Source: Sphingomonadales bacterium
Lineage (GTDB): Bacteria; Bacteroidota; Bacteroidia; Flavobacteriales_D; Crocinitomicaceae
Reading direction: 5' to 3'
Length of the DNA stretch: 49,739 nucleotides
Assembly (NCBI GenBank): GCA_046074325.1
Contig: JBJTNX010000070.1
Coordinates: 1 to 49,739, forward strand
Shown: piece after piece, positions 4,001-49,170 of the stretch
Layout of the letters: every line of letters starts with the position of its first letter
Numbering within the stretch: the first letter of the stretch is position 1
Translations under genes and position numbers: made by a program
Notes under the pieces: model-generated
What the model saw: only the letters and a program-made list of their open reading frames with translations
The model's database searches: none
What the model was told of the DNA's origin: nothing

Positions 4001-4463
4001 ACCTGGTTGCTATTCAATCATTATCGAAGATACCGATCAAGATGGTTTGGCCTTCTGGTACTCGGCTCAGGTAGAAGGCGAGACCTCAGGGCAAATGCGT
4101 TTGCGCAAGGTAGGTGGGAGCTATATTGAATTCTTCCCAGGAGATTTTGGACGTTACCACCGTTACGATTTCACGGTAGGTTTCACCCTCGATGTTCCAG
4201 AATTACAAAATGAGCCTTCCATTGCAATTTTTCCAAATCCGGGTGCAGGCCTCACGACTGTAGAGTTAAACGGACAAATCAATGGACAAGCCAGGTTACA
4301 ATTAGTAGATCTTACGGGGCGGATCTTATATCAAGAGAACATGAAAGCGACAGCTGATTTTGCCGAAAGTTTCATAAACATGAGTGGGTATCCTTCCGGA
4401 ACTTATCTTTTTCAAATTGACACCCCACAAGGTACTTACACTCAAAAATATATCAGACAGTAA
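1005..4463 (+). CDS. Large secreted T9SS cargo protein with a LamG/concanavalin-like domain and a PNGase F-like C-terminal-type domain
   Basis: 1152 aa. Signal peptide MKYILFLLFCLTQLQLFAQ. LamG-like block (FTIEFWAKGNS...WNHWAFVKD...MFIYKNGQLW...GNLDEIRIYKAAL). Cys-rich block GHGQVGDYACCEWVNNSHQIKVDG...GGTWPYAREGWCPGD, reminiscent of peptide-N-glycosidase F. Terminal about 80 aa (IAIFPNPGAGLTTVEL...GTYLFQI) is a T9SS type A sorting domain. Confidence 0.7.
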   Translation: MKYILFLLFCLTQLQLFAQDTTWVQTFTFDSITTRRANFQFPASLDTERFEKVQMYYKLKCSPLTTWDQYDCGEWDYLTYTRVFDHTGIFDSTAVNGMQFLANWASPATVNIKPLPYTEADQYIVQEMTKTATGLAHFAINAGGLSSSLPFVTTQQGSRFQFILTAQELLAAGVQPGAIKSLRFNIPTGGLLLHPLISIAPTALTSLNSFEQANFTEVYNASFAPGMSNPPLLPGWNTFVFYQDFIWDGTANLLVELSVDNDLPLMQNLEFAMETTTMPLSISYAGRNGMLALNGSNHTMSSFANEEIGNAFTIEFWAKGNSNLGQNTTLMEALDTAGRRIFNIHMPWSNNNIYFDAGDETGYDRINQAASPTEIDDEWNHWAFVKDQVSGQMFIYKNGQLWLSGNNKNREMGYFHRLIIGASGNQSLSWKGNLDEIRIYKAALSQGTIAAYYQQKIDNSHPNWNSLVLYHDFDNVKYARDLGPNEHTLMPSEYGMIKPNNDLYVSNQGLNIRPVIELGQGSNQVNCSTQYVNQFKLKEPIVVFEQAPLHNHFELIQSYIGVPSGTIESYDFNGALITSTPIQTTLSLSNQALTVYNPPFEIIHDVEIARYITPYGIQFDLGPNGFTWIYDVTDYQQYLHGLVDLAAHNTQELIDLKFAFIKGTPPRDVLNREPIWADFRSYNFGQMAADAVLQANPVVLSDTADMFKIKTRMSGHGQVGDYACCEWVNNSHQIKVDGVPRFNWSIWDAMVCGDNPNIGQGGTWPYAREGWCPGDMVKEFEFELTPYVTPGDTVTLDYAINAVPTTDPGQAGGNYIAAYDLISYSAPNFQNDAAVVDILNPNNYEYYSKWNPTCQNPRIIIKNTGAQPLTSCRIFCWLDYGSNLVYDWTGNLGFLEQAVVEIPVTDMNWWYEQDSSYTFTAWIADVNGIIGPDQYNQNSLMTVKYDAPERIDGPFFIWLTTNNKATENSYQLLDHAGNVLFERTNLQNTTQYKDTFDLAPGCYSIIIEDTDQDGLAFWYSAQVEGETSGQMRLRKVGGSYIEFFPGDFGRYHRYDFTVGFTLDVPELQNEPSIAIFPNPGAGLTTVELNGQINGQARLQLVDLTGRILYQENMKATADFAESFINMSGYPSGTYLFQIDTPQGTYTQKYIRQ

Positions 4464-16348: not shown

Positions 16349-19300
16349 CTATTTTTTAATGAATTGTAATACGGCAGCTTGTTGCCCATCGTATAAACCG
16401 AGGTAGTAGGTGCCGGCGGCAATTTTTGGACTCAGTTCTAGTGGTTGTTTGATGCTTCCATTTTGGGCATAGAGTTTAAATACACTGATTTGTTGCCCGA
16501 GTACATTGAATAATTTGGCTTCAATAACTTGGCCTTGAACACCTTCAATTTGGATTTCAAAACTGCCATTATTGGGGTTGGGGTACAAGTTGGCAGCAGC
16601 AAAACTGAGCTCAGCAAGTCCAGATGTATTGACGGTGACCTCTATGGAAGTGATGCAGCCGTTGTTGTCTTTCACGTAGCAAATGTAAGTACCAACCGCG
16701 AGGTTGGCAAAGAATGAGCCTGAGTAATAGGTTTGCCCATCCATCGAGTAGGTGTAGGGTGAATTCCCGCCACTTGCACTCAAAGCAATGGTGCCGTCAT
16801 TTCCATTGGATACGGTAGTACTGGCATTCAATACGAGTGCGGTGGGTTCAGTAATGGTGGAGGTAAAAGCTTGCTGACAGCCATTCGCATCAGTTGCTGT
16901 AAGCATGTAGGTGCCTGCTGCCAAATTATTGAAATTAGGAGTATTTACAGCTGTTCCGCCATTGAGTGAATAGGTATATGGACTTGTTCCGCCACTGACT
17001 TGGCTGGTCAATATTCCGTCGTTAGCGCCATTACAACTGATCATAGTCGGGATCATGTTGACGCTCAAGGCAGCCGGTTCCGTAACGACATAAATGAGTG
17101 TTGTGTTACAACCATTGGCATCAATAACACCAATGGTATAGGTGCCCGCGCCGAGGTTGACAAACGTATTGCTGGCTTGGTCAGCGCCGTTATTGATAGT
17201 GAAGTTGTATGGCGCGGTGCCGCCAGTTGGGCTCACCACAATGGTTGCAGTCTGGGATCCAGCACAAGCAATAGAAGTAGTTTGTGAGATATTTGCGCCG
17301 ATGGAAGCAGTGGCTGCAAGTGTAACAGTACCTGAAACCGTGCAGCCTGCGTTGTCCGAAACGCTATAGTTGTAGCTTCCAGCGGCAAGATTACTAAATG
17401 TATTGGTGCTTTGGCTAGGTGAGTTAGCGATGCTATATGTAAAAGGCGCTCCTGTACCACTTGTTTGTAGTTCAATAATTCCGTTACTCGCATTGCAACT
17501 AGGCTGCTGGCTTACAATCGGATTCACGGTGAAAGAAGAGGCGCCTAATACATTGATACTGATGCTAAATGCGTCGTTGCAGGTGTTTTCATCATTGCCG
17601 ATGCCATTGATATTTGCCAGTTGCAGGTTAAGTACATTGGCACCTGCTTGTAAGCCACTTGCCATTATGTAGATGGTATCAATGGTTTGATAGCTGTTCA
17701 GGGTGCTTGAATTGTAATTTTGCGAAATGGCGCCAGCAGTTCCAACCTGAGCACTTAGGTTAAATGTAGTGATGGCATTGACACCTCTATTCTCTACCAC
17801 CACAGCCACCTCTGTGCTCGAACCGCAAATACCACCATTTTGAGTTGTAAAGGCCTCTAGGATTGCTAAATCCAGTGAGTCTGGGTTCATTTTAAAGGCA
17901 GATACATTGGTGACAATATTGTTGTTGGAGTTCATGACTACACCGGTGTAGAAAAAGGTCAGGCCATCGAAGTCATCGATGCACATGTGATGGTAATCAC
18001 CCCAACGGGTGTTTGAGGTTCTTGCCGACATTCCTTGCTTGATCATGGTTTCTGGAAGTGTCATTTGTCCGAGTGGATCACATGCTTTACGACCAGTCAT
18101 CTGAATGGAAGGATAATCTGGTGCGGTGGTTCCGGATGTTGAATACGCCATCATGATATTTCCGTATTTGTCAATATTGATGGCAGGCATCCAGCGATTC
18201 AGTGTGGTTCCGGGTGCGTAAGTACCTTCTTGATACAAACTCCAGCTGCCAGTGCTGCCTGTAGGTCGACGAAGTTCTAGCCAACGCACACCTGCGCGGT
18301 TGTTTCCGTTGACATCTGTTGCCAAACATAAGACCATGGCCTGGTGATCGTTGAAAACCCGCATAGGTGCTTTGTACATGACGCATTCGCGAAGGGGGTC
18401 TAGTTTTACGGTGGTGCCAGGTTGTGAAATACAAGAAAAGCTCGTCAGACCACAAAGATCGGAATCGATTTCAGTGATAGGCACATCTTGAATTTTAGCA
18501 ACGCTTCCAGTGTTGTTCGTCCAGTTGATGGTCATTTCCCAGATTTCTATCCAGTCGTTGGTAGGGCTATCAGGTGAGCCGTTGGTGTGCTTTTCATCGT
18601 CGCGGTGACGCACAAAAAGTGGTTTTTGACCAAGTGGTGCCGAAAGGTCACCTTCGAGGTCTACAGGTGTAATCGATTGAAAACCAAATCCGTTGAGGGT
18701 ATAGCCAATGGCAACGCCAATGAATGGAGAAGTGGCACCAGAGATAAGCGCACTGAGTTTCATGGCATAGACGCGCGGTGGGCCGCCTTCGTTGGTGGTC
18801 GCTAACAAGGCGTCGGCTGTTTCGCAAATACTCCATTTTGGGTAATCGGGGAAATTTGGGCATGTGAATTGGTAAAAATGATATGCCCCTTGTGGATTGC
18901 TCGTTTGTGAAACATATACGAGCAATTTTTTTTGAGCCTGGGTTGAAAATTGGGTGATAATCCAGCGTTTAGCACTTTTGTAATAGAGAATGACGGGATC
19001 TCCAAGGCCTGTAACAGTTGGGCTACCCAAAGTAGAGGCCATCACGAGCGTGCCACTTACGGCAGCTCCTGTGGACTTGTTAAAAATCTTGTAGGAGCCA
19101 CCGCTACCGGCATTGGTTCCTTGGATGTACACAGTTGAATCGGCTTCTCCGGTTGGATCGGGTGGTGAAATGCCGTTGCCAATACCTTGAACTTGCCACA
19201 GCAAACTTGCTGAAACCGTTTTTTGTGCGTTTTGATGTTGTTGCCAGACCCAATCAGGTTGGTGCGCATTGCTGCCGAGTTGAACAGCTAATTCACGGCC

Positions 19301-19459
19301 TTTGAAGTTGGGAACAATGATTTCTTTATTGGCATCGGCACCTGTTGGCGCTGCCACTAGTTGAGCAGTTCCTGGGCTGAAATATCCATAAAATTCTGCT
19401 TGTTGGGCCGCAAACTGCTGCGCAAATAACAAGCATACGAGAAGGTAGCGTAGTTTCAT
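16349..19459 (-). CDS. Secreted T9SS cargo protein: about 640-aa N-terminal beta-rich domain, four SprB-type repeats, T9SS CTD
   Basis: 1036 aa. Signal peptide MKLRYLLVCLLFAQQFAAQ. Four tandem 74-78 aa repeats with C..(A)NDG......GG..PYTYS......N.F.NL.AGTY...V.DANGC. Last 89 aa (LYPNPNNGSFEIQI...GTYYLGL) is a T9SS sorting domain. Confidence 0.8.
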   Translation of the reverse strand: MKLRYLLVCLLFAQQFAAQQAEFYGYFSPGTAQLVAAPTGADANKEIIVPNFKGRELAVQLGSNAHQPDWVWQQHQNAQKTVSASLLWQVQGIGNGISPPDPTGEADSTVYIQGTNAGSGGSYKIFNKSTGAAVSGTLVMASTLGSPTVTGLGDPVILYYKSAKRWIITQFSTQAQKKLLVYVSQTSNPQGAYHFYQFTCPNFPDYPKWSICETADALLATTNEGGPPRVYAMKLSALISGATSPFIGVAIGYTLNGFGFQSITPVDLEGDLSAPLGQKPLFVRHRDDEKHTNGSPDSPTNDWIEIWEMTINWTNNTGSVAKIQDVPITEIDSDLCGLTSFSCISQPGTTVKLDPLRECVMYKAPMRVFNDHQAMVLCLATDVNGNNRAGVRWLELRRPTGSTGSWSLYQEGTYAPGTTLNRWMPAINIDKYGNIMMAYSTSGTTAPDYPSIQMTGRKACDPLGQMTLPETMIKQGMSARTSNTRWGDYHHMCIDDFDGLTFFYTGVVMNSNNNIVTNVSAFKMNPDSLDLAILEAFTTQNGGICGSSTEVAVVVENRGVNAITTFNLSAQVGTAGAISQNYNSSTLNSYQTIDTIYIMASGLQAGANVLNLQLANINGIGNDENTCNDAFSISINVLGASSFTVNPIVSQQPSCNASNGIIELQTSGTGAPFTYSIANSPSQSTNTFSNLAAGSYNYSVSDNAGCTVSGTVTLAATASIGANISQTTSIACAGSQTATIVVSPTGGTAPYNFTINNGADQASNTFVNLGAGTYTIGVIDANGCNTTLIYVVTEPAALSVNMIPTMISCNGANDGILTSQVSGGTSPYTYSLNGGTAVNTPNFNNLAAGTYMLTATDANGCQQAFTSTITEPTALVLNASTTVSNGNDGTIALSASGGNSPYTYSMDGQTYYSGSFFANLAVGTYICYVKDNNGCITSIEVTVNTSGLAELSFAAANLYPNPNNGSFEIQIEGVQGQVIEAKLFNVLGQQISVFKLYAQNGSIKQPLELSPKIAAGTYYLGLYDGQQAAVLQFIKK
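16619..17539 (-). repeat. Four tandem coding repeats (SprB-type, 74-78 aa each) inside the 1036-aa gene
   Basis: Residue counting back from the C-terminus: an 89-aa CTD preceded by repeats of 74, 77, 78 and 78 aa sharing the GG.(S/A)PY.(Y/F)(S/T) and AG(T/S)Y......D.(N/A)GC motifs. Confidence 0.7.
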
Positions 19460-21897: not shown

Positions 21898-21937
21898 TTT
21901 TTTTACTCGTTGATTTTTAGCAAATTTGTGTTTGAAA

Positions 21938-21945
21938 CAAATGTA
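21938..21945 (-). promoter_or_regulatory. Candidate -7 box (TACATTTG on minus strand) for the FAD oxidoreductase operon
   Basis: Exact TAnnTTTG match about 40 nt upstream of ATG 21897, in a divergent intergenic region. Confidence 0.3.
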
Positions 21946-21988
21946 CCAATTTGCGTTGAAAACAACATTTGACAAACCTTTGATTGCC

Positions 21989-24514
21989 ATGATAAAATTA
22001 TTCGCTTTTGTACTTATAATGCTTCCGTTTGCTTCGTTGGCGCAGCGCGATTTTTTAGTCGTCATCGAAGGGAACACCACCAATTTGCAAGACCAAAAGC
22101 CTGTTTTTGGCGTTAACGTTGACCTCATGCAACAAGATGCCGTCCTGACGAAAGTGTTGTCCAATGAAAGCGGCCAATATTATATTTCGGCGAAAATCAC
22201 ACAGGGGCAGCCGATTCAATTGCGTCTATCAAAAGGAGGTTACCTTACCAAATATATCCTCATCGATCTCACCGCCTTTCAAGGCCAAGCACAAAAACCG
22301 GCAGGACTTACACTGAGTCGTAACCTAGATGCTGCACTGTACCTATTGAAACCTGATGTCGACCTCAGTTTTGCCAAAAATACACCAACTGATAAATATG
22401 TTTGGTCTCCATCTGCACAGCGTTTGGAACACATTTCATTGGTGAAGTCCGATGCAGACACCAAAGCACTAGATGCTTATCTGGCAGCAGTTCACCTCAA
22501 AACGAAAAACCGTTTACTGCAAGAGGCAGACAAACAATTGGCGGCTCAGCAACCAGACAAAGCCATCATTTACTTAGATTCAATTTTAGTCATTTTACCT
22601 TCTGATCCAAGTGCTTTACAAAAAAAGCAAGTGATCCAAAAAGCCCAAGAAGACGCCAAATTAGCTGCAGCGCAAACAGCCAAACAAAACCAATTGTTAG
22701 AAGAAGCCCGTCTTGCCCTTGCTGCCCAAGACCTCAATTTAGCAGAGCGCAAACTCAAAGAAGCTTCTGCACTGCGTCCGGGCAATGCTGCCGTTGAACA
22801 AGAACTGGCAGCAGTTACAAAAGCGCGCATTGAGGCTGAACAAAACCAAGCCAAATCATTAGCTTTTCAAAAGACCATGCAGGCCGCGGCTGCCCTTATG
22901 ACGGCCAAACGCTACGACGAAGCGGCCTCAAAATACAACGAAGCACTCCAGATTCAGCCCACACAGAAAGATCAAGTCGATGCCGAATTGCGTAAAATCA
23001 AAGACATCAAACAAGATCTCTTAACTGAAGCAGAACTCAAAAAAACACTGAAATTGGCCAATGACCAATACTTACAAAAGAAGTACGATATCGCTTTGGA
23101 AACTTATAAGAAAGCAGACAAACAAATTGCACTTTTTCACAAGCAAAGCCTAATGGATACCTATTCCAAAGAGCTTCAAGCTGGCATGAAGCGCGTTACT
23201 GAAGGTATCAATTCGATGTCGCAGGTGTATCAAAATCAATTGGCCAAAGCCAATGAGAATTTCAACAAAGGGCCTCAATTCTACACTATGGCCAAAAATA
23301 TCCTCAATTCAGACCCGATGAAAAGTCGCCAAAACGAACCTGAGGTGATTGAGCTCAAGGAGAAAATCAGTGCCATGGAGGCGTACTATGCTGCACGAAA
23401 AGCGGCTTATGGCTTGGTTAAAACCAAAGATAACGCAGCCGCCCTGAAAGCCTTAGAAAAACTTCATGCAAATGCACAAAGTCATGTGGCGTACTTAGGT
23501 GTCAATGAACTCAATACTTTGCAAAAAAGTGCAGATTCTCTGCGTACCATTCTTGCTCCGGCAGTAGTTCAAACTCAAATAGATACCCCTGAGCCCGAAC
23601 CTGCGGGTATTCGTTTAAGTGCACCTGGACAAGAGGTTACATCTGATAATTCGATGGTCTTTTCAGATTTGCGTCAAACCCGAGATGCCAAAGAAGAAGC
23701 GCCATATCGAACCCAACAACAAATTCGTACTGAGGTAGAATACCAAAACTATTTCTCTCAACAAAATGCAGCTGTGGGCTCCTTCGAAACGACAGCGCAA
23801 TTAGAGCTTTCCCGATCACAGCGCGAACTCAGCACAAGACAAGCTGACCAGACCCAAGCCACTCTTCAAGCAGATAAAGCCAATGCAGCACAAGCTACCG
23901 AAGTAGCCATCACTGCACGCAATACTGCGGCAGCAGCAAGACAACAAGAAAACGATGTCAACTTAAGTGCTTGGAAGGACGCCAAAGACTATCAAGAACA
24001 AACTGAAGTAAAAGCTGCTGACGAACGTCAACAATACGAGTTGAATCGCCTCAATACCATACAAAATCAAAAAGACTTGCAATTGCATCAACAGGCGGTA
24101 CAAGCCGAAAAGGACGTCAATGAACTCAATCAAAGAAGTCAGACAGTGGCCTACACCAAGCAAGTACAGCAAGATGCTGCGTCCAACGGAGGCATTACTC
24201 AGTATGAGCAAATACAGCAAACTGCTGCCTCTACAGTACAATTGAAAACAACTCCAAATTACCTCAGAGATGAAAATGGTGTGTTGTTCCCTTCCAATAC
24301 CATGACAGAAAAAACCTATCAGATCAAAAATAAGGAAGGATATGTAACAAAGGTTGTGATCCGAAGAGTGGTTGTTGATGCCAACGGTTATGGCGTGGTT
24401 TACGAACAGACTACCGACGAAAACGGCAAAACTTATTTTACAAGAGATGGACAAGTGAGTACAGAATACGTATGGTTCAATGACTCCACTGGTGCCAACG
24501 TTCTGAAAAAATAA
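21989..24514 (+). CDS. Secreted protein: CarboxypepD_reg-like N-domain followed by about 600 aa of TPR-like/coiled-coil A/Q/K/E-rich helix
   Basis: Start chosen at ATG 21989 (MIKLFAFVLIMLPFASLAQ, a clean signal peptide). Long helical low-complexity body and a small beta-rich C-terminal module. Confidence 0.65.
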   Translation: MIKLFAFVLIMLPFASLAQRDFLVVIEGNTTNLQDQKPVFGVNVDLMQQDAVLTKVLSNESGQYYISAKITQGQPIQLRLSKGGYLTKYILIDLTAFQGQAQKPAGLTLSRNLDAALYLLKPDVDLSFAKNTPTDKYVWSPSAQRLEHISLVKSDADTKALDAYLAAVHLKTKNRLLQEADKQLAAQQPDKAIIYLDSILVILPSDPSALQKKQVIQKAQEDAKLAAAQTAKQNQLLEEARLALAAQDLNLAERKLKEASALRPGNAAVEQELAAVTKARIEAEQNQAKSLAFQKTMQAAAALMTAKRYDEAASKYNEALQIQPTQKDQVDAELRKIKDIKQDLLTEAELKKTLKLANDQYLQKKYDIALETYKKADKQIALFHKQSLMDTYSKELQAGMKRVTEGINSMSQVYQNQLAKANENFNKGPQFYTMAKNILNSDPMKSRQNEPEVIELKEKISAMEAYYAARKAAYGLVKTKDNAAALKALEKLHANAQSHVAYLGVNELNTLQKSADSLRTILAPAVVQTQIDTPEPEPAGIRLSAPGQEVTSDNSMVFSDLRQTRDAKEEAPYRTQQQIRTEVEYQNYFSQQNAAVGSFETTAQLELSRSQRELSTRQADQTQATLQADKANAAQATEVAITARNTAAAARQQENDVNLSAWKDAKDYQEQTEVKAADERQQYELNRLNTIQNQKDLQLHQQAVQAEKDVNELNQRSQTVAYTKQVQQDAASNGGITQYEQIQQTAASTVQLKTTPNYLRDENGVLFPSNTMTEKTYQIKNKEGYVTKVVIRRVVVDANGYGVVYEQTTDENGKTYFTRDGQVSTEYVWFNDSTGANVLKK

Positions 24515-28112: not shown

Positions 28113-29390
28113 CTATGTTTTGCGTTTTTGCTTTTTAGCAGCAGGAAATAGTATGTTATTGAGAATGAGGCGGTATCCAGGAGAATTTGGATGTAGATTT
28201 AAGTCTGTAGGTGGGTCTCCAACAAGGTGTTGGTAATCTTCGGGGTCGTGGCCCCCGTAGAAAGTCCAGGTGCCTTGCCCAAATTCGCCATGGACATATT
28301 TGGCGGTATTTGCCGCTTTGTTTTCACCGAGTATTAAGACATTCGGCTTAATGAATTCTTTATGAAAATCGGTAGTTTGACCCATAAAGCCATTAATGAC
28401 ATCCACGTGACATTGTGTAAGCATTGTTGGAACGACATCCCATTTGGCCGAAAAATCAAATAAGGTAAATTGGTCGGTCTTTTCGGTGATCAGACGTTGC
28501 GTGCGCAGATCAGTGCCGTCGATATCGCTGTATTCATAGACCATGGGGTCTTTGATGATATGAAAGTTTTGAAATGCGAAAGTCTGGTTGAAATCGAGTT
28601 TTTCTTGTGCTTTGGGGTCTGAAGGGGTGCCATCAAAAATAGCTTCTTGTATGTCGACATTTTGAGCGGCAAGCGCGATATCGAAAGAGTCGGTTCCGGA
28701 ACACATGGTGAACAGAAAACCACCTCCAATAACAAAGTTGCGGATATTGAGCGCTACAGCCTTTTTGAGTGCGGCTGTTGACGCATATCCGAGTTTGGCA
28801 GCTGCAGCCTCTGAACGCTGGACTTCTTGTTGGTACCAACTTTGCATGCGCGCTGAGCTATAAAATTTACCGTACTGTCCAGTGAAGTCTTCGTGGTGCA
28901 GGTGCAGCCAATCGTACTTAGGAAGTACACCATTGACAATTGCGGAGTCGTAGATTTTGTCGTATTTAATTTCGGCGTAAGTGAGTACGAGTGTAACGGC
29001 GTCATCCCAAGGGAGTTTATTTGGGGGCGTGTAAACGGCGATTTTGGGCGCTTTCTCCAGCTGAACAACCTCCATATTTACTTCTGGATCGGCAATTTCT
29101 GACTTGATTTTATTGACTTGGCCGTCGGCTAAAATTTGATAGCTAACGTTTCGGAGTAGCAATTCTTCTTCTATGCGTTGCAAGTGGGGAATCAGAAAGC
29201 TTCCGCCACGGTAATTGAGCAGCCATTCGATAATGACTTGATTTTCTAAAGCCCAATAGGCCACGCCATATGCTTTGAGATGGTCCCTTTGACTTTCGTC
29301 CATTGGGACTAAAATCTGACTAGCGCTAAGTTGAAAGCTAAAGCAAAATGCAAAGAGCGTAAAAAGCAGTTTAGAATGGATCTTCCTCAT
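28113..29390 (-). CDS. Conserved secreted protein of unknown function (family often auto-annotated 'asparagine synthetase B'; possibly GATase1-like fold)
   Basis: Start chosen at ATG 29390 (MRKIHSKLLFTLFAFCFSFQLSAS signal peptide); it overlaps the dnaB 3' end by 20 nt. The ILVPMDESQRDHLKAYGVAYWAL motif is recalled from Flavobacteriia homologs. Function not supported. Confidence 0.55.
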   Translation of the reverse strand: MRKIHSKLLFTLFAFCFSFQLSASQILVPMDESQRDHLKAYGVAYWALENQVIIEWLLNYRGGSFLIPHLQRIEEELLLRNVSYQILADGQVNKIKSEIADPEVNMEVVQLEKAPKIAVYTPPNKLPWDDAVTLVLTYAEIKYDKIYDSAIVNGVLPKYDWLHLHHEDFTGQYGKFYSSARMQSWYQQEVQRSEAAAAKLGYASTAALKKAVALNIRNFVIGGGFLFTMCSGTDSFDIALAAQNVDIQEAIFDGTPSDPKAQEKLDFNQTFAFQNFHIIKDPMVYEYSDIDGTDLRTQRLITEKTDQFTLFDFSAKWDVVPTMLTQCHVDVINGFMGQTTDFHKEFIKPNVLILGENKAANTAKYVHGEFGQGTWTFYGGHDPEDYQHLVGDPPTDLNLHPNSPGYRLILNNILFPAAKKQKRKT

Positions 29391-30921
29391 TGTTGTCTTT
29401 GCTGAAAATATCTTCATTGCCTTCATCCATTTTACTTTTTATCGTGTAGGTAGAAAATTCTTGATTGAATTGAGATAAATTGGAGTTAATTGGGCCAGGG
29501 ATGTCGAGCGCCTCAACTTCATCGAGGTTTTCAAAACGGGCAAATTCCGGAACAAAACGCAGTCTTACGTTTTTGAGCGCACCATTTCGGTGCTTGGCGA
29601 TGATGATTTCTCCGATTCCGAGTGTAGAATTTCCATCTGCATCTTGGGTGAGGTCGTAGTACTCAGGACGATAAATAAACGAAACGATATCGGCATCTTG
29701 TTCGATAGCGCCAGATTCACGTAAATCGGATAGCATTGGGCGTTTGTCTCCACCTCGGGTTTCTACCGAACGACTCAGCTGAGATAAGGCGATAATGGGA
29801 ACGTTAAGTTCTTTGGCAATTTCTTTAATGGAACGAGATATAGTGGAGATTTCTTGCTCGCGGTTTCCGCCGCTTTTCGAATCTTTGGCACTCATGAGCT
29901 GCAAGTAATCGATGATGACGAGGTCTATATTGTGCTGCGCTTTGAGTCGACGACATTTGGCCCTAAAATCGAAGATATTGATGCCGGGTGTGTCGTCGAT
30001 GAAAATGGGCGCCTCAGCAAGTTTGCCAATGCGGCTGTGGAGTTGTTGGAATTCGTGTTCTTTGAGGTCACCTTTTCGAAGTTTTTCGGCAGGTAATCTC
30101 GATTCACTGGCTATTAAACGCTTCACCAACTGCACTGATGACATCTCGAGAGAGAAAATGGCGACGCCTTTTCCATATTCTACTGCGGTATTGCGCGCCA
30201 TAGAAAGTACAAAAGCGGTTTTACCCATACCAGGGCGAGCAGCCAATACGATCATGTCAGAGCGTTGCCAACCCGCGGTAACTTTATCGAGATCATGGAA
30301 GCCCGTTGGTATTCCCGAAACGCCATCTGTATTTTTGGAGGCCAATTCAATCTCGTGGATTGCTTCCTGAACAATGTATGACATCGAGCCCACTTGTTTG
30401 GACATGTTGTTTTCGGCAATACTGAAGAGATCAGCCTCTGCGTCATGGAGTAAATCAAAGACATCACGGGTGTCGTCGTAGGCGTCGCGAATGATCTTTG
30501 AGCTGACGCTGATGAGTTCTCGCTTGATGAATTTTTCAGCCAAAATACGCGCATGGTGCTGAACGTGGGCAGCACTGGCCACACGGGTTGTGAGGGAGCT
30601 TACATAACCAGCTCCACCTGCTAATTCAAGTTCGCCACTTTTTTGAAGTTGGTTGGTGACGGTAACGAGGTCTATGGGGTTTGTGGCCGCAAAAAGCGCC
30701 CGAATGGCCTTGAAAATATGTTGGTGACGCACATCGTAAAATGTTTTTTCAGACAAAATATCGATGGTGTCGTTGATGGCTCTGCTTTCGAGCATCATGG
30801 CGCCAAGTACAACTTGTTCGATATCAAGCGCCTGTGGCGGAATTCTGCCCATTTCTGCAAAAGGTTGCGTTGGCGTTTTGATACGGGAAATAGGTTTGCG
30901 ATTGTTATCCGGAGCGTCCAT
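29371..30921 (-). CDS. dnaB: Replicative DNA helicase DnaB
   Basis: Start chosen at ATG 30921 (MDAPDNNRK...). PPQALDIEQVVLGAMM N-domain, Walker A ARPGMGKT, IDYLQLM, SQLSR, RESG.IEQDAD. Confidence 0.9.
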   Translation of the reverse strand: MDAPDNNRKPISRIKTPTQPFAEMGRIPPQALDIEQVVLGAMMLESRAINDTIDILSEKTFYDVRHQHIFKAIRALFAATNPIDLVTVTNQLQKSGELELAGGAGYVSSLTTRVASAAHVQHHARILAEKFIKRELISVSSKIIRDAYDDTRDVFDLLHDAEADLFSIAENNMSKQVGSMSYIVQEAIHEIELASKNTDGVSGIPTGFHDLDKVTAGWQRSDMIVLAARPGMGKTAFVLSMARNTAVEYGKGVAIFSLEMSSVQLVKRLIASESRLPAEKLRKGDLKEHEFQQLHSRIGKLAEAPIFIDDTPGINIFDFRAKCRRLKAQHNIDLVIIDYLQLMSAKDSKSGGNREQEISTISRSIKEIAKELNVPIIALSQLSRSVETRGGDKRPMLSDLRESGAIEQDADIVSFIYRPEYYDLTQDADGNSTLGIGEIIIAKHRNGALKNVRLRFVPEFARFENLDEVEALDIPGPINSNLSQFNQEFSTYTIKSKMDEGNEDIFSKDNNEEDPF

Positions 30922-35276: not shown

Positions 35277-36797
35277 TCAATTTTTAAGCAATTGAAATTG
35301 ACTTTCGGCAACATTTAACAAATATACGCCGCACGGGAATGAACTCAAGTCTAGTTTTTCAGAAAGAGCACCATTTAAAAGGAGCTTTCCTCTGGCATCC
35401 AATAATTCAAAATTCTGTTGGGTTAAATGAGGCGGAATCTCAAAGAGACCACTGCTCGGATTAGGAAATATCTTGGGAAGGGTCGGGATTTCACTAACTG
35501 TATTTGTGCTGTCGTTTTGGTCGTAACGGTTTATATAAATTTTTAGCGAACCGCTACGAACATCGCCCCATATGGTGTAGAGCAGGTTGTTTTCAAATTG
35601 CACGCTTAAAAAATCGTTGCCGTTCTCAAGAAGAATGGAATCATCGGTCACCAAAGGACTTACAATAAATTCATTTTGCCATGATCCATTGGTCTGAATT
35701 CGGCAATAAATCTGACTAGGGCTCTGATATGTAGCTGGATTGCCATTGCGTCGATCTCGCCAGCAAACACCGAGGTCGCCATCGGTGTCGTAGTCGGCCC
35801 AAACCAGGTCTTGTATGGCACCGTTGCCTTGAACATCATTATTGACTCTGGCGGGCGCACCCCAGGTGCTGCCATTTTTTTCGATAAACGCGATATCAGG
35901 GTCGCCAAAAACTTCTGTTGTGAAGAAATAGGCAGCCTTATTTGAATTGGTTGAATGAAGCGCTAGATGAGGGCCGCTTTTGAGTGTATCATTTGACGTT
36001 CCGAACCCTAAACCTTGGAACGCCGTTTGATAACTGTAAAAGGAGGCAGGAGCCGTTTTACGGACCTCTATGATTCTTGGTAATATGCTTTGACTTGGTT
36101 CGTAACTTGGATACAAAGCCATAAAAGTGCCATCAGCTGCGAAGGCCGGCGATGGCATGGGTTGTTGAATGGCGCTTCCCGCCAAAAACGGAGCCGCATC
36201 CAAAATTTGCGTTTGAAAAGTATTGCCACCATCGCTTGACAGCGTAAGATACGGATGGTATGGCGCCAGCACCATTCCGGGTTGTTCAGCATTCATACTG
36301 GTAATGGCAACTGTACCTGTAAGTGGATCTACTGCAATCCATGGCCGATCTATACACAACTGGTTTGGGCAAGATGTAATTGACAACGCAACTACTGCTG
36401 CTCCCCATGAGAGACCGCCATTTGAGGATTTGCGGCAAATAATGGCGCCATTTGTAAAGTTGATGTTGTCGTAATCGATGTATGCCATATACAAGTTCCC
36501 ACTCGCGTCAAAACCGAGCGAGACATCGGCGCTGCTGTTAGAGGCCTGTTGGTGCGCTAACCAAATTGGTGTAGACCAAGTACTGCCGCCATCGGTTGAG
36601 ACAGCACTTTTAATAACGATTTTTTGGTTTGGTTGAAAGCCCATCCACGCAGCCACGAGGTGTTGGCTATTTTGAGGATGCACCGCCAAGTAAGGCTCAC
36701 CTTCAAAGAATGCGCCGCTTGACACTAAAGTATTTTGCGCAATTCCAATCATACAATTAAACAAAAATAGGTAGGTGAGTAAGGCCTTTGTTTTCAT
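35277..36797 (-). CDS. Secreted BNR/Asp-box (sialidase-fold beta-propeller) protein with T9SS CTD
   Basis: 506 aa with a signal peptide. Asp-box repeats STDGGSTW, SSNGGLSW, SSDGGNTF. C-terminal IFPNPSSGLFEI...GVYLLNV sorting domain. Confidence 0.75.
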   Translation of the reverse strand: MKTKALLTYLFLFNCMIGIAQNTLVSSGAFFEGEPYLAVHPQNSQHLVAAWMGFQPNQKIVIKSAVSTDGGSTWSTPIWLAHQQASNSSADVSLGFDASGNLYMAYIDYDNINFTNGAIICRKSSNGGLSWGAAVVALSITSCPNQLCIDRPWIAVDPLTGTVAITSMNAEQPGMVLAPYHPYLTLSSDGGNTFQTQILDAAPFLAGSAIQQPMPSPAFAADGTFMALYPSYEPSQSILPRIIEVRKTAPASFYSYQTAFQGLGFGTSNDTLKSGPHLALHSTNSNKAAYFFTTEVFGDPDIAFIEKNGSTWGAPARVNNDVQGNGAIQDLVWADYDTDGDLGVCWRDRRNGNPATYQSPSQIYCRIQTNGSWQNEFIVSPLVTDDSILLENGNDFLSVQFENNLLYTIWGDVRSGSLKIYINRYDQNDSTNTVSEIPTLPKIFPNPSSGLFEIPPHLTQQNFELLDARGKLLLNGALSEKLDLSSFPCGVYLLNVAESQFQLLKN

Positions 36798-45114: not shown

Positions 45115-45123
45115 AACAAACAC

Positions 45124-45155
45124 AAAAAAGGCCGCTCGATTGGGCGGCCTTTTTT
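45124..45155 (-). terminator. Bidirectional rho-independent terminator downstream of the riboswitch-controlled gene
   Basis: AAAAAAGGCCGC-loop-GCGGCCTTTTTT: a 7-bp GC-rich stem flanked by an A-run and a T-run, 15 nt after the stop at 45170. Confidence 0.8.
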
Positions 45156-45169
45156 GTGTTTGTTATTTT

Positions 45170-46423
45170 TTAGTTCTTAACGAGCTTGATGCAACTTTCG
45201 TTTGATTTTAAAAAATAAATACCGCTTTCAAAATTGTCGAGATCAATTTGCGCTTGGTTTGTGCTTAATATTTCTTGACCAGCGGCGTTAAAAATGTGTA
45301 AAATTTGACCTGATTGAAGACCAATAACTTGGAAAGCTCCATTGGACGGATTCGGATAAACTTGAAGTGTATTTTGAAGCTCGTTTAACCCTGCACTTGA
45401 ACGGATATCAAAAACGATGGTGCCAGGAGAGACACCTACGTTGAATTGACTGACGAGCGCGTTATTTGCGTCGTAGATGTGCACCATCCCTTGCGAAAAG
45501 AAATCTGTAGTGGACGTGTAAAGTTGACCACTTTGTGGATTTTGAGCTAGCTCATAGAAATTATTGCTGATGCCTGCAACCGGGCCAACGAAAGCCATGT
45601 TGAGTAGGTTGTAATCATTGAGGGTGTTTTCCATGGAAATTTGATAGACGAGTTTGTCGTCGCGTAGGGCAGAGGTGCCACAACCAGTAACTGCGTTGGC
45701 AATATTTTGCGTATTCACTGTTCCATTTAAACTCACCTTAGAAACCGAAGCACCTGACCAATCTTTATTGTTTACCGTATATAATTCGTTGTTGAAAACA
45801 AACATATTATCTGGGTTTTTACCTTCTACGCCGAGGTCAATTTCTGAACCGTAGTTGAGGGTGTTCAAGTTGAGTTGCCCAATGAGGCCTTTCTCGTTGC
45901 CCCACTCATAAGCATTGTTGATGGCAATGTAAGCGATGTCATTGACAACAACGATGTTTTGAGTTGCCCATTTAGGCCCAGTGATGGTATCGAATGCAAC
46001 AAGAAGTTGAAGACTGTTTTTGTCGAAAACTTGCAAATAAGAATCGAATGTTTGGAGGTATTCTCCTCTTGAAGCAATTAGTTTATTGCCGGCAATAGCC
46101 AAATTGCGGACACCAGGAAGCAAGATGCTACCGAGTTCTTGATGTGAGTTCAGATCGAACTTGTAAATTTTGGTATCGGCTGCTACATAATAAGAGTTGC
46201 CATCGATGAGTACGTCAGAACTGAAGCGCTGACCAACTAGGGTGTCAACCACAACATACGTTTGGGTACTAGGATTGTACGAACCAATGGTTGCGGGTTC
46301 AATGATTGTATTGGTTTGAAAGTCAAAAAAACCTTCGTTAGCAATGAGTACTTGGTGGGTGTATTGGTGAGCAAAAAGCCCAGAACTGCACAATACAGCA
46401 GCGAAAAATAATCCTTTTTTCAT
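45170..46423 (-). CDS. Secreted beta-propeller-like protein (YncE/DUF5074/BtuG-like body) with T9SS CTD, under cobalamin riboswitch control
   Basis: Start chosen at ATG 46423 (MKKGLFFAAVLCSSGLFA). Body begins VLIANEGFF and carries repeated beta-blade-like units (..YVAADTKIYKFDL.., ..LQVFDKNSLQL.., ..AYIAINNAYEW.., ..LYTVNNKD..). Terminal LQVYPNPSNGAFQV...GIYFLKS is a T9SS CTD. Confidence 0.7.
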   Translation of the reverse strand: MKKGLFFAAVLCSSGLFAHQYTHQVLIANEGFFDFQTNTIIEPATIGSYNPSTQTYVVVDTLVGQRFSSDVLIDGNSYYVAADTKIYKFDLNSHQELGSILLPGVRNLAIAGNKLIASRGEYLQTFDSYLQVFDKNSLQLLVAFDTITGPKWATQNIVVVNDIAYIAINNAYEWGNEKGLIGQLNLNTLNYGSEIDLGVEGKNPDNMFVFNNELYTVNNKDWSGASVSKVSLNGTVNTQNIANAVTGCGTSALRDDKLVYQISMENTLNDYNLLNMAFVGPVAGISNNFYELAQNPQSGQLYTSTTDFFSQGMVHIYDANNALVSQFNVGVSPGTIVFDIRSSAGLNELQNTLQVYPNPSNGAFQVIGLQSGQILHIFNAAGQEILSTNQAQIDLDNFESGIYFLKSNESCIKLVKN

Positions 46424-46458
46424 GTGTTGAAAATTAAAAAAATTAAACAATGACATTG

Positions 46459-46690
46459 AAAAAAGTGGAGCGGCAAGGGTATACGAAGCCCTTGGCGATA
46501 CCGACCTTAATCTGAAGTCTTCACGCTGTTCAGGGGCAAGTCTTCTGGCTCGTGCTTATTGCCGTTTCACCTTCCCGCAAAAGCAGTGGTTTGATTGAAA
46601 CGCCTTTTTCAAGACACTTACAGCTGCAGATACAGCTCCGGATTTACACCGGATTCCTTATTAAGTTCGACAAGCGAACACCCAAGAACG
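46459..46690 (-). promoter_or_regulatory. Cobalamin (B12) riboswitch with expression platform
   Basis: Minus strand reads TTAATAAGGAATCCGGTGTAAATCCGGAGCTGTATCTGCAGCTGTAAG (46619-46665), ACCACTGC (46583-46590), GCGGGAAGGTGAAACGGC (46561-46578) and the B12 box AGCCAGAAGACTTGCCCC (46533-46550). Order and spacing match the cobalamin riboswitch consensus. A hairpin CAAGGG-N9-CCCTTG (46474-46494) and a T6 run follow before the ORF. Confidence 0.85.
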
Positions 46691-46851
46691 TCGCAAAGGT
46701 ACACAAATAAACAATGGCAGCTTCGGTGTGCTGCTTTTTTAAATTTGAACCATAAAATATGTGCTAATTGTTGATAAATCAAGTAGTTATAATTGTGTAT
46801 TAAAAATTTTTATAGATATATTGGTCATGCTAATCCTAAATCTATTTTACT

Positions 46852-48750
46852 ATGGAACTACTTAATTTGCCTTTGAAAATGCTCAACGAGCTATTTGGAA
46901 ATGGTGCCTTTTTTTCGAATTGGGTGTCATTTTTTATCGCCAATTGGATGGCGCTTGCCCTAGGTGGATACATCCTATCCAAATGGATGTCCAAACCGCC
47001 GCAAGGATTAATCGACCGAGATACACTCGCGCAACGAATTACACAAGAATCAAGCTGGTATGCACCTTTGTCTATTGTTGCCATTGCGATGTCAGTGGTG
47101 TATAACGTCGGTGTTTACGCACTCTTCTTACTTTTAGAAGCCACCACTTTTGTAACCAATTTTGTGTATAAATGGGTTTCTGTGTTCGTTTTGTGGTTGT
47201 GGAACGAGGTCTTTAAACCTTCTATTTGGATGTTGGTCAAGGTGATATATCATTACCTTATCAGTTGGCCCTTCCAATTATTGCTGACTGTTATTCATAC
47301 CGTTCCTGCAACGCTGAATAGGCCGTCGTATACCCAAGTTTTTTGGCCGACCCTCTACGGATCCTGCGCTTCAGCAATATTGGTTTTTGTGGGTTATCTT
47401 ACCGATCAACAACTACTCATTGAATACGGTCCTTTATTTTCGCTAACACTGGCCTTGGTTTGGATTGTTGCATCGACCATTTACCAGCGCAACGATGCTG
47501 CTTTTAAAAGTTTGCGTTTTTCACTGATCCTGATGGCCATTCTCATCGCTATTTTTGGTGCGTTTTACTTCATGAACTTCTTTGACGGCCACACAAAGTG
47601 GGGAGGGGTTGCATCCGGAATCCTACATGCGCCGAATGTGTTTGGGGCAGCCATTATTTTACTTTCAGTTCTTTCTTTGGTCTATCTCACCAATGTGGGC
47701 GTCATATTTTCTAATGAACAGCTCTCTGCTCATTGGCCAGACAACATTTACAACTACATCAAAGCGGCATTTAAACATAGCTTGGCTTTTATTTATCAAC
47801 CCATTTTAGTTGTTATCGTCTCGGTCGTAATAATTCTTCTACCTTGGGCTATTCTTGAGCAAAGCGCCGATTTTGCGACTGAAAACTGGGTAGAAAATCG
47901 CTTGAGCGCAAAGTCAAAATCAATTAACGACGAACTCGATAAAGTGCAGGTTCTCGATAAAGTTACGCGCTTGATCAACCCGGATAGCACAAAAAATGAG
48001 GCTTTTGATGCAGCACTAGCTTCACTAGAAGATGAAGTGAGCTTACGCTATGAGCTTTCTGAGAATAAACGTTATGCAGATTACCTATCAGGTGCCTTGG
48101 TTTTTGGGTCCAATGATCTTAAACCAATGATGACGGCAAAAGCATTCGATGCAAAGATCAAAGCGGATACCGACGCATTGGACGAATTGCGGGGTTTCAA
48201 AAAAGCATTTGATGCAAGCTATAAGGATCAAATAGAAGCACTCAACGATCAAATTGTAGACATCAACGCCACCATTAATTCCAATCCTGATTTGGCTGAA
48301 TTCTACATGCCGATGCGCAACAACTTAAAGTCTACGAGCAAGACGCTGACCATTACCCAAGAACGACATCAGCGATTTTTTGAAGCGCAAATTGCCGCAA
48401 CTCAGAAAGTAAATGAACGCTTTGCCGCAAATTGGCTGCGTTACAGCCTGACATACTTATTTCTTTTAGTAGCTAAATACGTATTATTGGCAGTGGTTAT
48501 TGCGTTTATTTTCAATTTGTATGCGCATACAGTCAAGCCTATCTACGATGCACACAATGGCTCCAGAATTGTTGCCGCCATTGATGAAGAGCGCAGTAGA
48601 AATAACCAACAGCCTTGGTTGGCTTGGTTGGTGTTGGCCGCTTTAGTTGTCGTTTATTTCCAGTGGAATAGCCTCAGTGCCACGACTTCAAGTCAAGTGG
48701 ATACGGTATCGACAATACTCGAGGATTTGAGCGCTAAAATTGTCCAGTAA
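46852..48750 (+). CDS. Hypothetical polytopic membrane protein with a central coiled-coil region
   Basis: 632 aa. About 8-9 hydrophobic segments in the first 340 aa, about 190 aa of charged helical region, and two further C-terminal hydrophobic segments. No recognisable motif. Confidence 0.55.
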   Translation: MELLNLPLKMLNELFGNGAFFSNWVSFFIANWMALALGGYILSKWMSKPPQGLIDRDTLAQRITQESSWYAPLSIVAIAMSVVYNVGVYALFLLLEATTFVTNFVYKWVSVFVLWLWNEVFKPSIWMLVKVIYHYLISWPFQLLLTVIHTVPATLNRPSYTQVFWPTLYGSCASAILVFVGYLTDQQLLIEYGPLFSLTLALVWIVASTIYQRNDAAFKSLRFSLILMAILIAIFGAFYFMNFFDGHTKWGGVASGILHAPNVFGAAIILLSVLSLVYLTNVGVIFSNEQLSAHWPDNIYNYIKAAFKHSLAFIYQPILVVIVSVVIILLPWAILEQSADFATENWVENRLSAKSKSINDELDKVQVLDKVTRLINPDSTKNEAFDAALASLEDEVSLRYELSENKRYADYLSGALVFGSNDLKPMMTAKAFDAKIKADTDALDELRGFKKAFDASYKDQIEALNDQIVDINATINSNPDLAEFYMPMRNNLKSTSKTLTITQERHQRFFEAQIAATQKVNERFAANWLRYSLTYLFLLVAKYVLLAVVIAFIFNLYAHTVKPIYDAHNGSRIVAAIDEERSRNNQQPWLAWLVLAALVVVYFQWNSLSATTSSQVDTVSTILEDLSAKIVQ

Positions 48751-48835: not shown

Positions 48836-48843
48836 TATCTTTG
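48836..48843 (+). promoter_or_regulatory. Candidate rpsO promoter -7 box (TATCTTTG)
   Basis: Exact TAnnTTTG match with TTG 17-20 nt upstream; 57-nt leader to ATG 48901. Confidence 0.4.
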
Positions 48844-48900
48844 CACCCGTATTGACCAAGGTGGTCAGTCTACATAATAATCATTTACACAAATATTAGC

Positions 48901-49170
48901 ATGTATTTAGATTCAGCAAAGAAGAAAGAGATCTTCGCCAAACACGGTGGTTCAGAAGCCAATACCGGTTCTACAGAAGGGCAAATTGCCTTGTTTACAT
49001 TTCGCATCAGTCACCTTACTGAGCACTTGAAAAAGAACCGCAAAGACTACGGCACTCAACGCGCACTTCAATTGTTAGTTGGTAAGCGTCGTAGCCTTCT
49101 AGATTACCTAAAGGCAAAAGACATCGAAAAATACCGTGCCTTGATCAAAGAATTAGGACTCCGTCGTTAA
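48901..49170 (+). CDS. rpsO: 30S ribosomal protein S15
   Basis: 89 aa. GSTEGQIALFT.RI..LTEHLK..KKD..S.R.L...V.KRR.LL.YL pattern of S15. Confidence 0.95.
   Translation: MYLDSAKKKEIFAKHGGSEANTGSTEGQIALFTFRISHLTEHLKKNRKDYGTQRALQLLVGKRRSLLDYLKAKDIEKYRALIKELGLRR

Follow-up and report, generated by a model that had tools for sequence, protein, structure and literature searches.

What does a cobalamin riboswitch control when no vitamin B12 gene lies near it? The question is raised by a single-gene unit on the minus strand of a 49,739-nucleotide stretch of contig JBJTNX010000070.1 (assembly GCA_046074325.1, Crocinitomicaceae), referred to here as the window. A full-length cobalamin riboswitch precedes one gene, at 45170..46423, the 417-residue product of which combines a signal peptide, a predicted seven-bladed beta-propeller homologous to the corrinoid-binding protein BtuG, and a C-terminal sorting domain (CTD) of the type IX secretion system (T9SS). 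From these features we infer that the product binds corrinoids, is repressed by B12, is exported and passes its ligand on to a transporter. It is probably a B12-repressed, T9SS-exported corrinoid binder that would work extracellularly and supply an outer-membrane transporter encoded elsewhere and, behind it, a BtuFCD-type importer, a reading that is put at a probability of roughly 0.72.

The riboswitch leader and the single-gene cassette

A cobalamin riboswitch upstream of the gene, followed by a hairpin and a U-run, had been proposed in a sequence-only reading of this stretch, which was made without database searches. Both are borne out. The aptamer, at 46518..46700 on the minus strand, matches the Rfam covariance model RF00174 with 92.7 bits (gathering score 31.5, E 7.7e-22), and the match found with cmscan spans model positions 1-189 of 189, the B12 box AGCCAGAAGACUUGCC included. 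Abutting its 5' edge, at 46694..46701 on the same strand, is the sequence TACCTTTG, which was read by eye as a box of the consensus TAnnTTTG. This motif is the established Bacteroidota -7 promoter element, and is a predicted promoter here. Of 82 related leaders, 77 have the box at 36-38 nt from the aptamer core on its upstream side, against 0.03 expected from background.

Directly 3' of the aptamer, in the position of P13, is the small hairpin GACUU-CAGAUUA-AAGUC (46503..46519, minus strand). Its sequence is near-invariant across 78 unique leaders, and its 5-bp stem is kept in 26 out of 26 diverse leaders with one compensatory change from G-C to A-U. The leader intrinsic terminator, or expression platform, follows at 46459..46502 (minus strand) and consists of an imperfect hairpin (46502-46467) and a U6 run (46464-46459). 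Its structure is conserved across relatives. The segment folds as a hairpin in 52 unique related leaders, with a median of -11.7 kcal/mol, and in 48 of these 52 the stem ends 1-4 nt ahead of a run of U5-U8. Sequence-by-sequence inspection shows that the terminator stems vary by lineage with pairing retained; the compensatory change in this hairpin rests on that inspection and not on a formal covariation statistic. When MAFFT alignments of 78 leaders and of 26 leaders were folded with RNAalifold, the invariant small hairpin was the sole structure called; the variable second hairpin was out of register. An A+U-rich spacer of 35-60 nt separates the leader terminator from AUGAAAAAAGG.

Judged by sequence, the leader has the build of an off-switch that acts through transcription termination. 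With abundant corrinoid in the cell, the aptamer would bind it and the leader terminator would abort transcription, while scarcity of corrinoid would allow read-through into the gene. A competing antiterminator pairing was not identified in the leaders. The AUG is fully paired in the minimum-energy fold of 52 of 84 leaders and the U-run can pair with the start region. Sequestration of the start codon by the U-run is possibly coincidental, since the sequence that encodes an MKK signal peptide (AUGAAAAAA) can by its nature pair with any U-run, and this candidate was set aside.

In its full-length RF00174 aptamer followed by a hairpin and U-run, the element resembles the class I cobalamin riboswitches with a terminator platform, such as those upstream of btuB or cob operons. 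The known regulons of cobalamin riboswitches comprise B12 synthesis, B12 and cobalt transport, and B12-independent isozymes. The element in the window differs from the usual class I riboswitch in that its target is neither a transporter nor a biosynthetic operon or isozyme but one exported protein, and in that the -7 promoter box directly adjoins the aptamer.

The gene itself (45170..46423, minus strand, stop codon included) had been described as standing alone and ending at a strong bidirectional terminator, and this holds. The terminator, at 45116..45163, is a G+C-rich hairpin with a 20-bp stem, 9 pairs of which are G-C. It lies between A and T runs, with a T run on both strands, and scores as a terminator in both directions. 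In 74 of 86 related loci the stop codon is likewise followed, within 110 nt, by a hairpin and T-run of this kind. An alternative in-frame ATG upstream, at 46456, would give a product of 428 residues; because the homologues begin at MKK, not at this ATG, the start of the 417-residue product is placed at MKK, a start shared by homologues of the same length. Promoter, riboswitch, leader terminator, one gene and final terminator would together make an autonomous cassette. The claim that no B12 gene lies nearby is likewise upheld, as a Pfam search of nearly all window open reading frames (ORFs) of at least 150 residues found no TonB-dependent receptor, btuFCD, cob/cbi gene or B12-dependent enzyme. 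An Rfam scan of the 49.7-kb window gave only two matches, this riboswitch and an S15 leader, with no second cobalamin riboswitch.

Domain structure of the product

The three parts of the protein that had been read from its translation, a signal peptide, a repetitive beta-rich body and a T9SS sorting domain, are all recovered, the first by inspection, the second as a modelled propeller and the third by profile matches. The signal peptide covers residues 1-18 (46370..46423, minus strand) and reads MKKGLFFAAVLCSSGLFA, with HQ following the cleavage site. It is Sec/SPI-like, with an MKK start, a hydrophobic core and a putative cleavage site between A and H/Q, and was recognised by eye and not by a predictor. 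It is kept in the family. The family N-termini end in A-Q or S-Q and no conserved Cys precedes the NEG motif, so there is no lipobox cysteine. In the AlphaFold2 (AF2) model the mature N-terminus starts about six residues ahead of the first strand.

The propeller occupies residues 19-345 (45389..46369, minus strand) and is assigned as a BtuG homologue from the AF2 model, Foldseek and the family profile. A flexible linker at about residues 342-351, the lowest-confidence segment in both structure models, leads to the T9SS type A sorting domain at residues 355-417 (45173..45361, minus strand). This domain matches Por_Secre_tail PF18962 over residues 355-410 with 40.3 bits (cutoff 27) and the type A model TIGR04183 with 35.6 bits (cutoff 23), and in a PDB sequence search it aligns to the solved CTDs 7pzj, 8glk and 5jvk. 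It is the only part of the product that is recognised by Pfam or NCBIfam; the body is without a Pfam family.

Relationship to BtuG

The structure model was built from 89 diverse family members and has a mean predicted local distance difference test score (pLDDT) of 94.2 and a predicted template-modelling score (pTM) of 0.80, with seven blades and a C-terminal beta-sandwich. The top ten Foldseek matches in the PDB are all BtuG1, BtuG2 or BtuG3, with E values of 2e-16 to 1e-14, target-normalised TM scores of 0.77-0.82 and root-mean-square deviations of 2.5-2.8 A for most and 4.1 A for three. The next match is BtuK1 (9S6C, E 6e-12), and generic propellers score 1e-10 or weaker. This model replaced an earlier one from 29 close homologues (pLDDT 77, low confidence at residues 247-281), the 13 best PDB matches of which were already BtuG.

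Comparison of sequences leads to the same proteins. A phmmer search of the PDB sequences finds nine propeller chains (E 7e-6 to 8e-4) above two weaker matches to the sorting domain, and those propeller chains that could be checked are BtuG2, BtuG3 or the apo BtuG2 entry 3DSM. The family profile, made from 89 sequences, matches the whole length of BtuG2 (positions 26-339 of the profile on 50-367 of BtuG2, E 8e-17). With this match and the Foldseek results, homology of the product to BtuG can be regarded as established by sequence and modelled structure, despite a pairwise identity of 16-20%.

The sequence-only reading had likened the body to both BtuG and the DUF5074 propellers. The first resemblance stands; membership of DUF5074 does not, as the window protein has no match to DUF5074 (PF16819) at E<=1. 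Among 108 family representatives a single one matches PF16819, weakly (E 3.5e-4), whereas genuine BtuG fragments do carry it. On these sequence comparisons the family is best described as a separate sister family of BtuG that has no Pfam model, and not as canonical BtuG, since the PF16819 match, the lipoprotein cysteine with its linker, and an adjacent btuB are all lacking.

The likenesses to BtuG1, BtuG2 and BtuG3 of Bacteroides thetaiotaomicron (DUF5074/PF16819; 3DSM, 8BAI, 8OKV, 8PTD) include the same seven-bladed topology and full-length profile homology, an N-terminal NEGxF motif, Arg, aromatic and Asn/Gln residues at several of the corrin-contact positions, an upstream cobalamin riboswitch, and confinement to the Bacteroidota. 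The differences lie in export, gene organisation, pocket and habitat. The window protein has a plain signal peptide and a T9SS type A CTD in place of the lipoprotein cysteine and export signal; its gene forms its own single-gene cassette and is not beside btuB; Trp272 and Trp149 of BtuG2 are not conserved in its family; and its hosts are freshwater Crocinitomicaceae, Chitinophagales and Saprospiraceae, in contrast to the gut Bacteroidales. In the gut strains, 106 of 109 btuB operons contain btuG (PMC6143338), and the linker that follows the lipidated Cys32 of BtuG2 serves as its hinge on BtuB (PMC10404256). Extracellular corrinoid capture ahead of an outer-membrane transporter, under riboswitch control, is also seen in BtuH, BtuJ, BtuK1 and the B12-binding vesicles of Bacteroides. 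BtuH, BtuJ and BtuK1 are lipoproteins within btu loci, however, and reach past the cell surface via vesicles, not by a dedicated secretion system.

The putative corrinoid pocket

Corrinoid contacts of BtuG2 were taken from bioRxiv 10.1101/2024.02.16.580637 and mapped through the family hidden Markov model, with 13 positions treated as contacts. For this mapping BtuG2 residues 50-367 were rebuilt from the profile alignment, as a 77-residue BtuG2 query returned short fragments only. Four of the 13 are identical: Glu55, Gly56, Phe58 and Arg133 of BtuG2 correspond to E30, G31, F33 and R106 of the window protein, Arg133 being numbered by count from the alignment where the text of the preprint gives Arg135. 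About five are similar, namely Trp194 (Y172), Gln219 (N203), Asn107 (D83), Gln93 (S69) and Ser195 (N176), of which Trp194 is an assumed contact because the paper does not number all aromatic contacts in its text. The remaining four differ, with Ser131, Ile148 and Trp272 replaced by G and Ile359 by S.

The corresponding columns are near-invariant (E, G, F/Y, S/T/N, D, G, R, G, x, F/Y, N, N, G, S/A) in ten members of the family that are only 32-38% identical overall. Conservation of contact columns against such a background is the pattern expected of a conserved ligand pocket, as far as aligned sequences can reveal one. Loss of the pocket in those members that lack a riboswitch was considered and rejected, as the contact positions are equally conserved there.

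At the place of BtuG2 Asp271-Trp272 in the corrin pocket the window protein has a G-C-G-(T/S)-S motif (residues 247-251, at about 45671-45685), with the codon of Cys248 at 45680-45682. The motif is that of the closer half of the family. Its cysteine is kept in 54 of 89 members and is the sole cysteine of the propeller body in 46 of the 89. It might be a cobalt ligand or a redox site.

The family and its genomic contexts

A search with the propeller body gives 393 clusters at 50% identity under a threshold of E<=1e-3, of which 244 also reach E<=1e-10. The type A T9SS domain is present in 86 of 108 full-length family representatives. With one genome taken per species, 246 genomes encode a relative, and the riboswitch count is based on the best 80 of these (L007-L086, 54-97% identity). 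All 80 are metagenome-assembled genomes (MAGs) of freshwater Crocinitomicaceae or Flavobacteriales that have not been cultured, and L007 is the closest at 97% identity. Many of the relatives were assembled from lake time series. Several syntenic Crocinitomicaceae-like loci are in MAG records titled Sphingomonadales, Akkermansia, Chitinophaga pinensis or Chryseobacterium gleum (L042, L086, L038, L020 and others); such titles look to be errors of taxonomic labelling, or signs of contaminated bins, in the public records.

A covariance model built from five aptamers places one riboswitch in 79 of the 80 loci, on the strand of the gene and 95-110 nt upstream. The sole locus without one, L063, has only 107 nt of upstream sequence. 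Rfam confirms the riboswitch in L001-L006, L087, L089-L091, L094 and L095, and the relatives score 77-107 bits. The pairing of riboswitch and CTD protein is thus a feature of related genomes and not of the window alone. Distant members, at 32-38% identity, are found in Chitinophagales, Saprospiraceae and other Flavobacteriales, again with type A sorting domains. Among the distinct distant lineages sampled, the riboswitch is present in four (L087; L089, L094 and L095; L090; L091) and absent from two (L088; L092 and L096).

The genes that flank the riboswitch-gene pair fall into at least ten unrelated arrangements. Since the pair is kept in 79 of 80 loci across these neighbourhoods, with a receptor rarely near, riboswitch and gene are, from their distribution, to be seen as a unit that moves together, without a transporter partner. 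A TonB-dependent receptor lies within 10 kb in 5 of 87 loci. Linkage to such receptors was rejected, because by a rough estimate for receptor-rich Bacteroidota genomes this is no more than chance.

Independent genomic evidence that ties the family to corrinoid import comes from a Chitinophagales lineage represented by three assemblies (L089, L094, L095). Here Peripla_BP_2, FecCD and ABC_tran genes begin 12 nt after the homologue, under the same riboswitch, and the best NCBIfam match of the permease is BtuC. The homologue therefore heads a riboswitch-controlled operon of the btuFCD type. The earlier proposal that the gene is uncoupled from any transporter is shown for gene linkage only, and in this one lineage the homologue is joined to an importer operon.

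This operon also bears on the idea that the protein serves as an extracellular corrinoid reservoir or as a means of competitive sequestration, storing B12 on the outside of the cell, so that competitors are starved or supply is buffered, instead of feeding a dedicated transporter, much as has been proposed for BtuJ1. The gene is alone in most lineages, as such a role would allow, and an affinity of the BtuG class suffices to strip host binding proteins (2026 review). A surface B12 reservoir has been proposed for another Bacteroidetes binder (bioRxiv 10.1101/2025.07.01.662609). Repression by intracellular B12 suits uptake better than hoarding, however, and the Chitinophagales operon with btuFCD links the family to import, which makes a reservoir improbable and leaves capture for uptake as the preferred role.

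Several other features of the relatives' loci were observed. In L080-L082 a TonB-dependent receptor (CarboxypepD_reg and Plug, 799 residues) and a DUF4249 protein are encoded after the cassette, on its own strand, with a gap of 239 nt before the receptor in L082 and a PhnA/YjdM gene between in L080. This receptor could be an occasional partner or a chance neighbour. The riboswitch-less branch L092, L093 and L096, and likewise L088, has the gene directly after an Rce1-like gene and keeps all pocket residues, and in L092 a MurQ-like SIS gene follows, as in the lineage of the window. B12-using enzymes are encoded near two loci, methylmalonyl-CoA mutase in L084 and a PduO-type adenosyltransferase in L005. 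One Flavobacteriales lineage has a tRNA gene immediately downstream of the cassette (L090 11349-11420, L091 11338-11409).

Is the ligand a corrinoid?

A number of observations weigh against the product being a B12-repressed corrinoid binder that feeds a transporter. Pairwise identity to BtuG is low, the match to DUF5074 is lacking, and the contact residues W149, W272, I148 and I359 differ from those of BtuG2. Rfam finds no riboswitch in L088, L092 and L096, the last of which has only about 70 nt of upstream spacer, and with these three sampled members lacking it control by B12 is not universal in the family. The tabulated loop pairs show no clean co-variation between the L5 loop and the loop of the small hairpin, which leaves the link between aptamer and terminator the weaker; no claim of a kissing loop is made for this reason. 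No cognate outer-membrane receptor was identified at the examined loci. Finally, BtuG2 gives up B12 only once loop EL8 of BtuB dislodges it (PMC10404256), so that a binder not docked on a transporter would have a release problem.

Some of these points would be explained if the protein were not a corrinoid binder at all, the propeller having diverged to another ligand, such as a different tetrapyrrole or a glycan, or to the role of an adhesin or enzyme, with riboswitch control being indirect. Identity of only 16-20%, the missing Pfam assignment and the three members without a riboswitch all fit this. Beta-propellers are functionally versatile, and transporters of the Peripla_BP_2/FecCD kind also import heme and siderophores. 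Yet the conserved residues coincide with the corrinoid-contact positions of BtuG, the structural neighbours other than BtuG and BtuK1 are far weaker, and the riboswitch travels with the gene. Of the known regulons of cobalamin riboswitches, moreover, an exported propeller fits transport only. A ligand or function unrelated to corrinoids is for these reasons very improbable, and a corrinoid binder is the preferred reading.

Predicted export and site of action

The protein would cross the inner membrane via Sec and the outer membrane via the T9SS, with removal of the CTD. Type A cargos, among them the gingipains and the exoenzymes of Flavobacterium, share with it the N-terminal signal peptide and the C-terminal PF18962/TIGR04183 domain. 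Known T9SS cargos are proteases, glycoside hydrolases, adhesins and gliding-motility proteins. Four other genes in the window encode T9SS CTD proteins (1005-4463, 4464-6809, 16349-19459 and 35277-36797), which are respectively of the Laminin_G_3 plus N-glycanase_C, LVIVD-repeat, SprB-repeat and BNR-like kinds. So many further cargo genes within 50 kb suggest that the host relies heavily on the T9SS. No core T9SS gene was among the genes seen for this genome, and the relative L005 encodes GldB and GldC.

Once outside, the propeller would capture corrinoids and pass them to an outer-membrane transporter encoded elsewhere, and from there they would reach a BtuFCD-type importer. The sequence holds nothing to tell release of the protein from anchoring. 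By analogy with BtuG, a form anchored at the cell surface through its processed C-terminus is favoured over a freely released one. The N- and C-termini of the closed propeller adjoin, and a C-terminal anchor would therefore sit where the N-terminal lipid of BtuG sits. Anchoring is also favoured by the dependence of BtuG-type binders on a loop of BtuB for release of B12, and by the loss to diffusion that a released protein would suffer around planktonic cells.

The alternative is a released corrinophore. Here the CTD would be cleaved and the soluble propeller, like a hemophore or siderophore, would bind corrinoids at a distance and then be recaptured, or have its cargo removed, at a receptor. 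In the Flavobacteriia, many of the cargos with a type A CTD are soluble exoproteins. The gene is not linked to a receptor (5 of 87 loci within 10 kb), and the lipidated N-terminal linker that hinges BtuG on BtuB is missing. It has also been reported that purified soluble BtuG2 can work extracellularly in trans, its B12-loaded form supporting growth (PMC6143338). In the same study, however, BtuG2 producers failed to rescue non-producers in co-culture (PMC6143338). BtuG-type off-rates are very slow and a docked BtuB loop is needed for release of the ligand (PMC10404256), and the hosts are dilute freshwater plankton, around which a released 36-kDa protein would mostly be lost by diffusion. Given a corrinoid function, release is accordingly regarded as a tentative and rather doubtful possibility, and the anchored form as the preferred one.

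A more specific version is unlikely as a whole, though worth stating: a secreted corrinophore of freshwater and soil Bacteroidota, made only in B12 starvation, that would capture corrinoids away from the cell and bring them back to an unlinked receptor, and in which the cysteine of G-C-G-T-S would be the cobalt ligand. If true, cysteine ligation of cobalt would be a binding chemistry not seen in BtuG. Domain fusions are also present in the family. Nine of the 108 representatives match Big_9 plus cadherin-like domains, and several representatives are long fusions of 610-940 residues (examples of such members are P0123, P0163, P0176, P0200, P0202 and P0229), which suggests surface-displayed, stalked versions of the binder.

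Neighbourhood of the cassette

The genes on either side of the cassette are as they had been read from the sequence, PyrR-like and MurQ genes on one side and a divergent membrane protein gene on the other. Downstream lie genes for a PyrR-like phosphoribosyltransferase, for MurQ (371.7 bits, cutoff 168) and for a protein of the arginase family. The gene on the upstream side is divergent (46852-48750, plus strand) and encodes a 632-residue multi-pass membrane protein without a Pfam or NCBIfam family. This gene lies between rpsO and the cassette in the window and in L001, L006, L007, L036, L037 and L042. As it is absent from most relatives, it is a lineage-specific insertion or deletion.

A G+C-rich hairpin at 46716-46735, just upstream of the cassette promoter, is terminator-like on the plus strand, yet no gene on that strand ends there, and it is not conserved in four aligned relatives. 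The S15-Flavobacteria ribosomal leader (48836-48903, plus strand, 62.4 bits) precedes rpsO and starts with TATCTTTG, a TAnnTTTG -7 box like that of the cobalamin cassette. The Rfam S15-Flavobacteria model thus appears to take in the promoter. Two sizeable ORFs of the window are without a Pfam family, at 21926-24514 (plus strand, 862 residues) and 28113-29426 (minus strand, 437 residues). A homologue of the 862-residue ORF is found three genes downstream of the cassette in L045 and L065.

Significance

BtuG has been described as a lipoprotein lid whose gene, in gut Bacteroides, almost invariably adjoins that of BtuB, and TonB-dependent transporters with a lipoprotein cap are taken as the general model for Bacteroidota. 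That the present arrangement had not been described, as the sequence-only reading supposed, agrees with searches of the full-text literature, in which coverage of subscription journals is thin. These returned no description of a BtuG-like or B12/corrinoid-binding T9SS cargo, and no report of a vitamin-binding or riboswitch-controlled T9SS cargo. The only paper found to contain both BtuG and T9SS cites BtuG in its reference list alone, and a 2026 review of the Bacteroides B12-capture system covers lipoproteins and vesicles only. What is new is the export route, together with the genetic organisation and the ecological setting; the fold and the probable ligand were known already.

A large sister family keeps the fold and, in large part, the pocket of BtuG, yet would use the T9SS for export and anchoring, and has become a free-standing riboswitch cassette. 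This points to an undescribed route of B12 scavenging in lake bacteria. If binding is confirmed, nutrient and vitamin capture would join the known classes of T9SS cargo, and it would become testable how a BtuG-type binder with a very slow off-rate frees its ligand without a hinge on BtuB. The compact, portable Bacteroidota unit of promoter, riboswitch and terminator, and a possibly soluble high-affinity corrinoid binder, would then also be useful as tools. The known range of the BtuG mechanism would also grow beyond the gut to take in abundant freshwater bacterioplankton, in which the exchange of B12 between producers and auxotrophs shapes communities.

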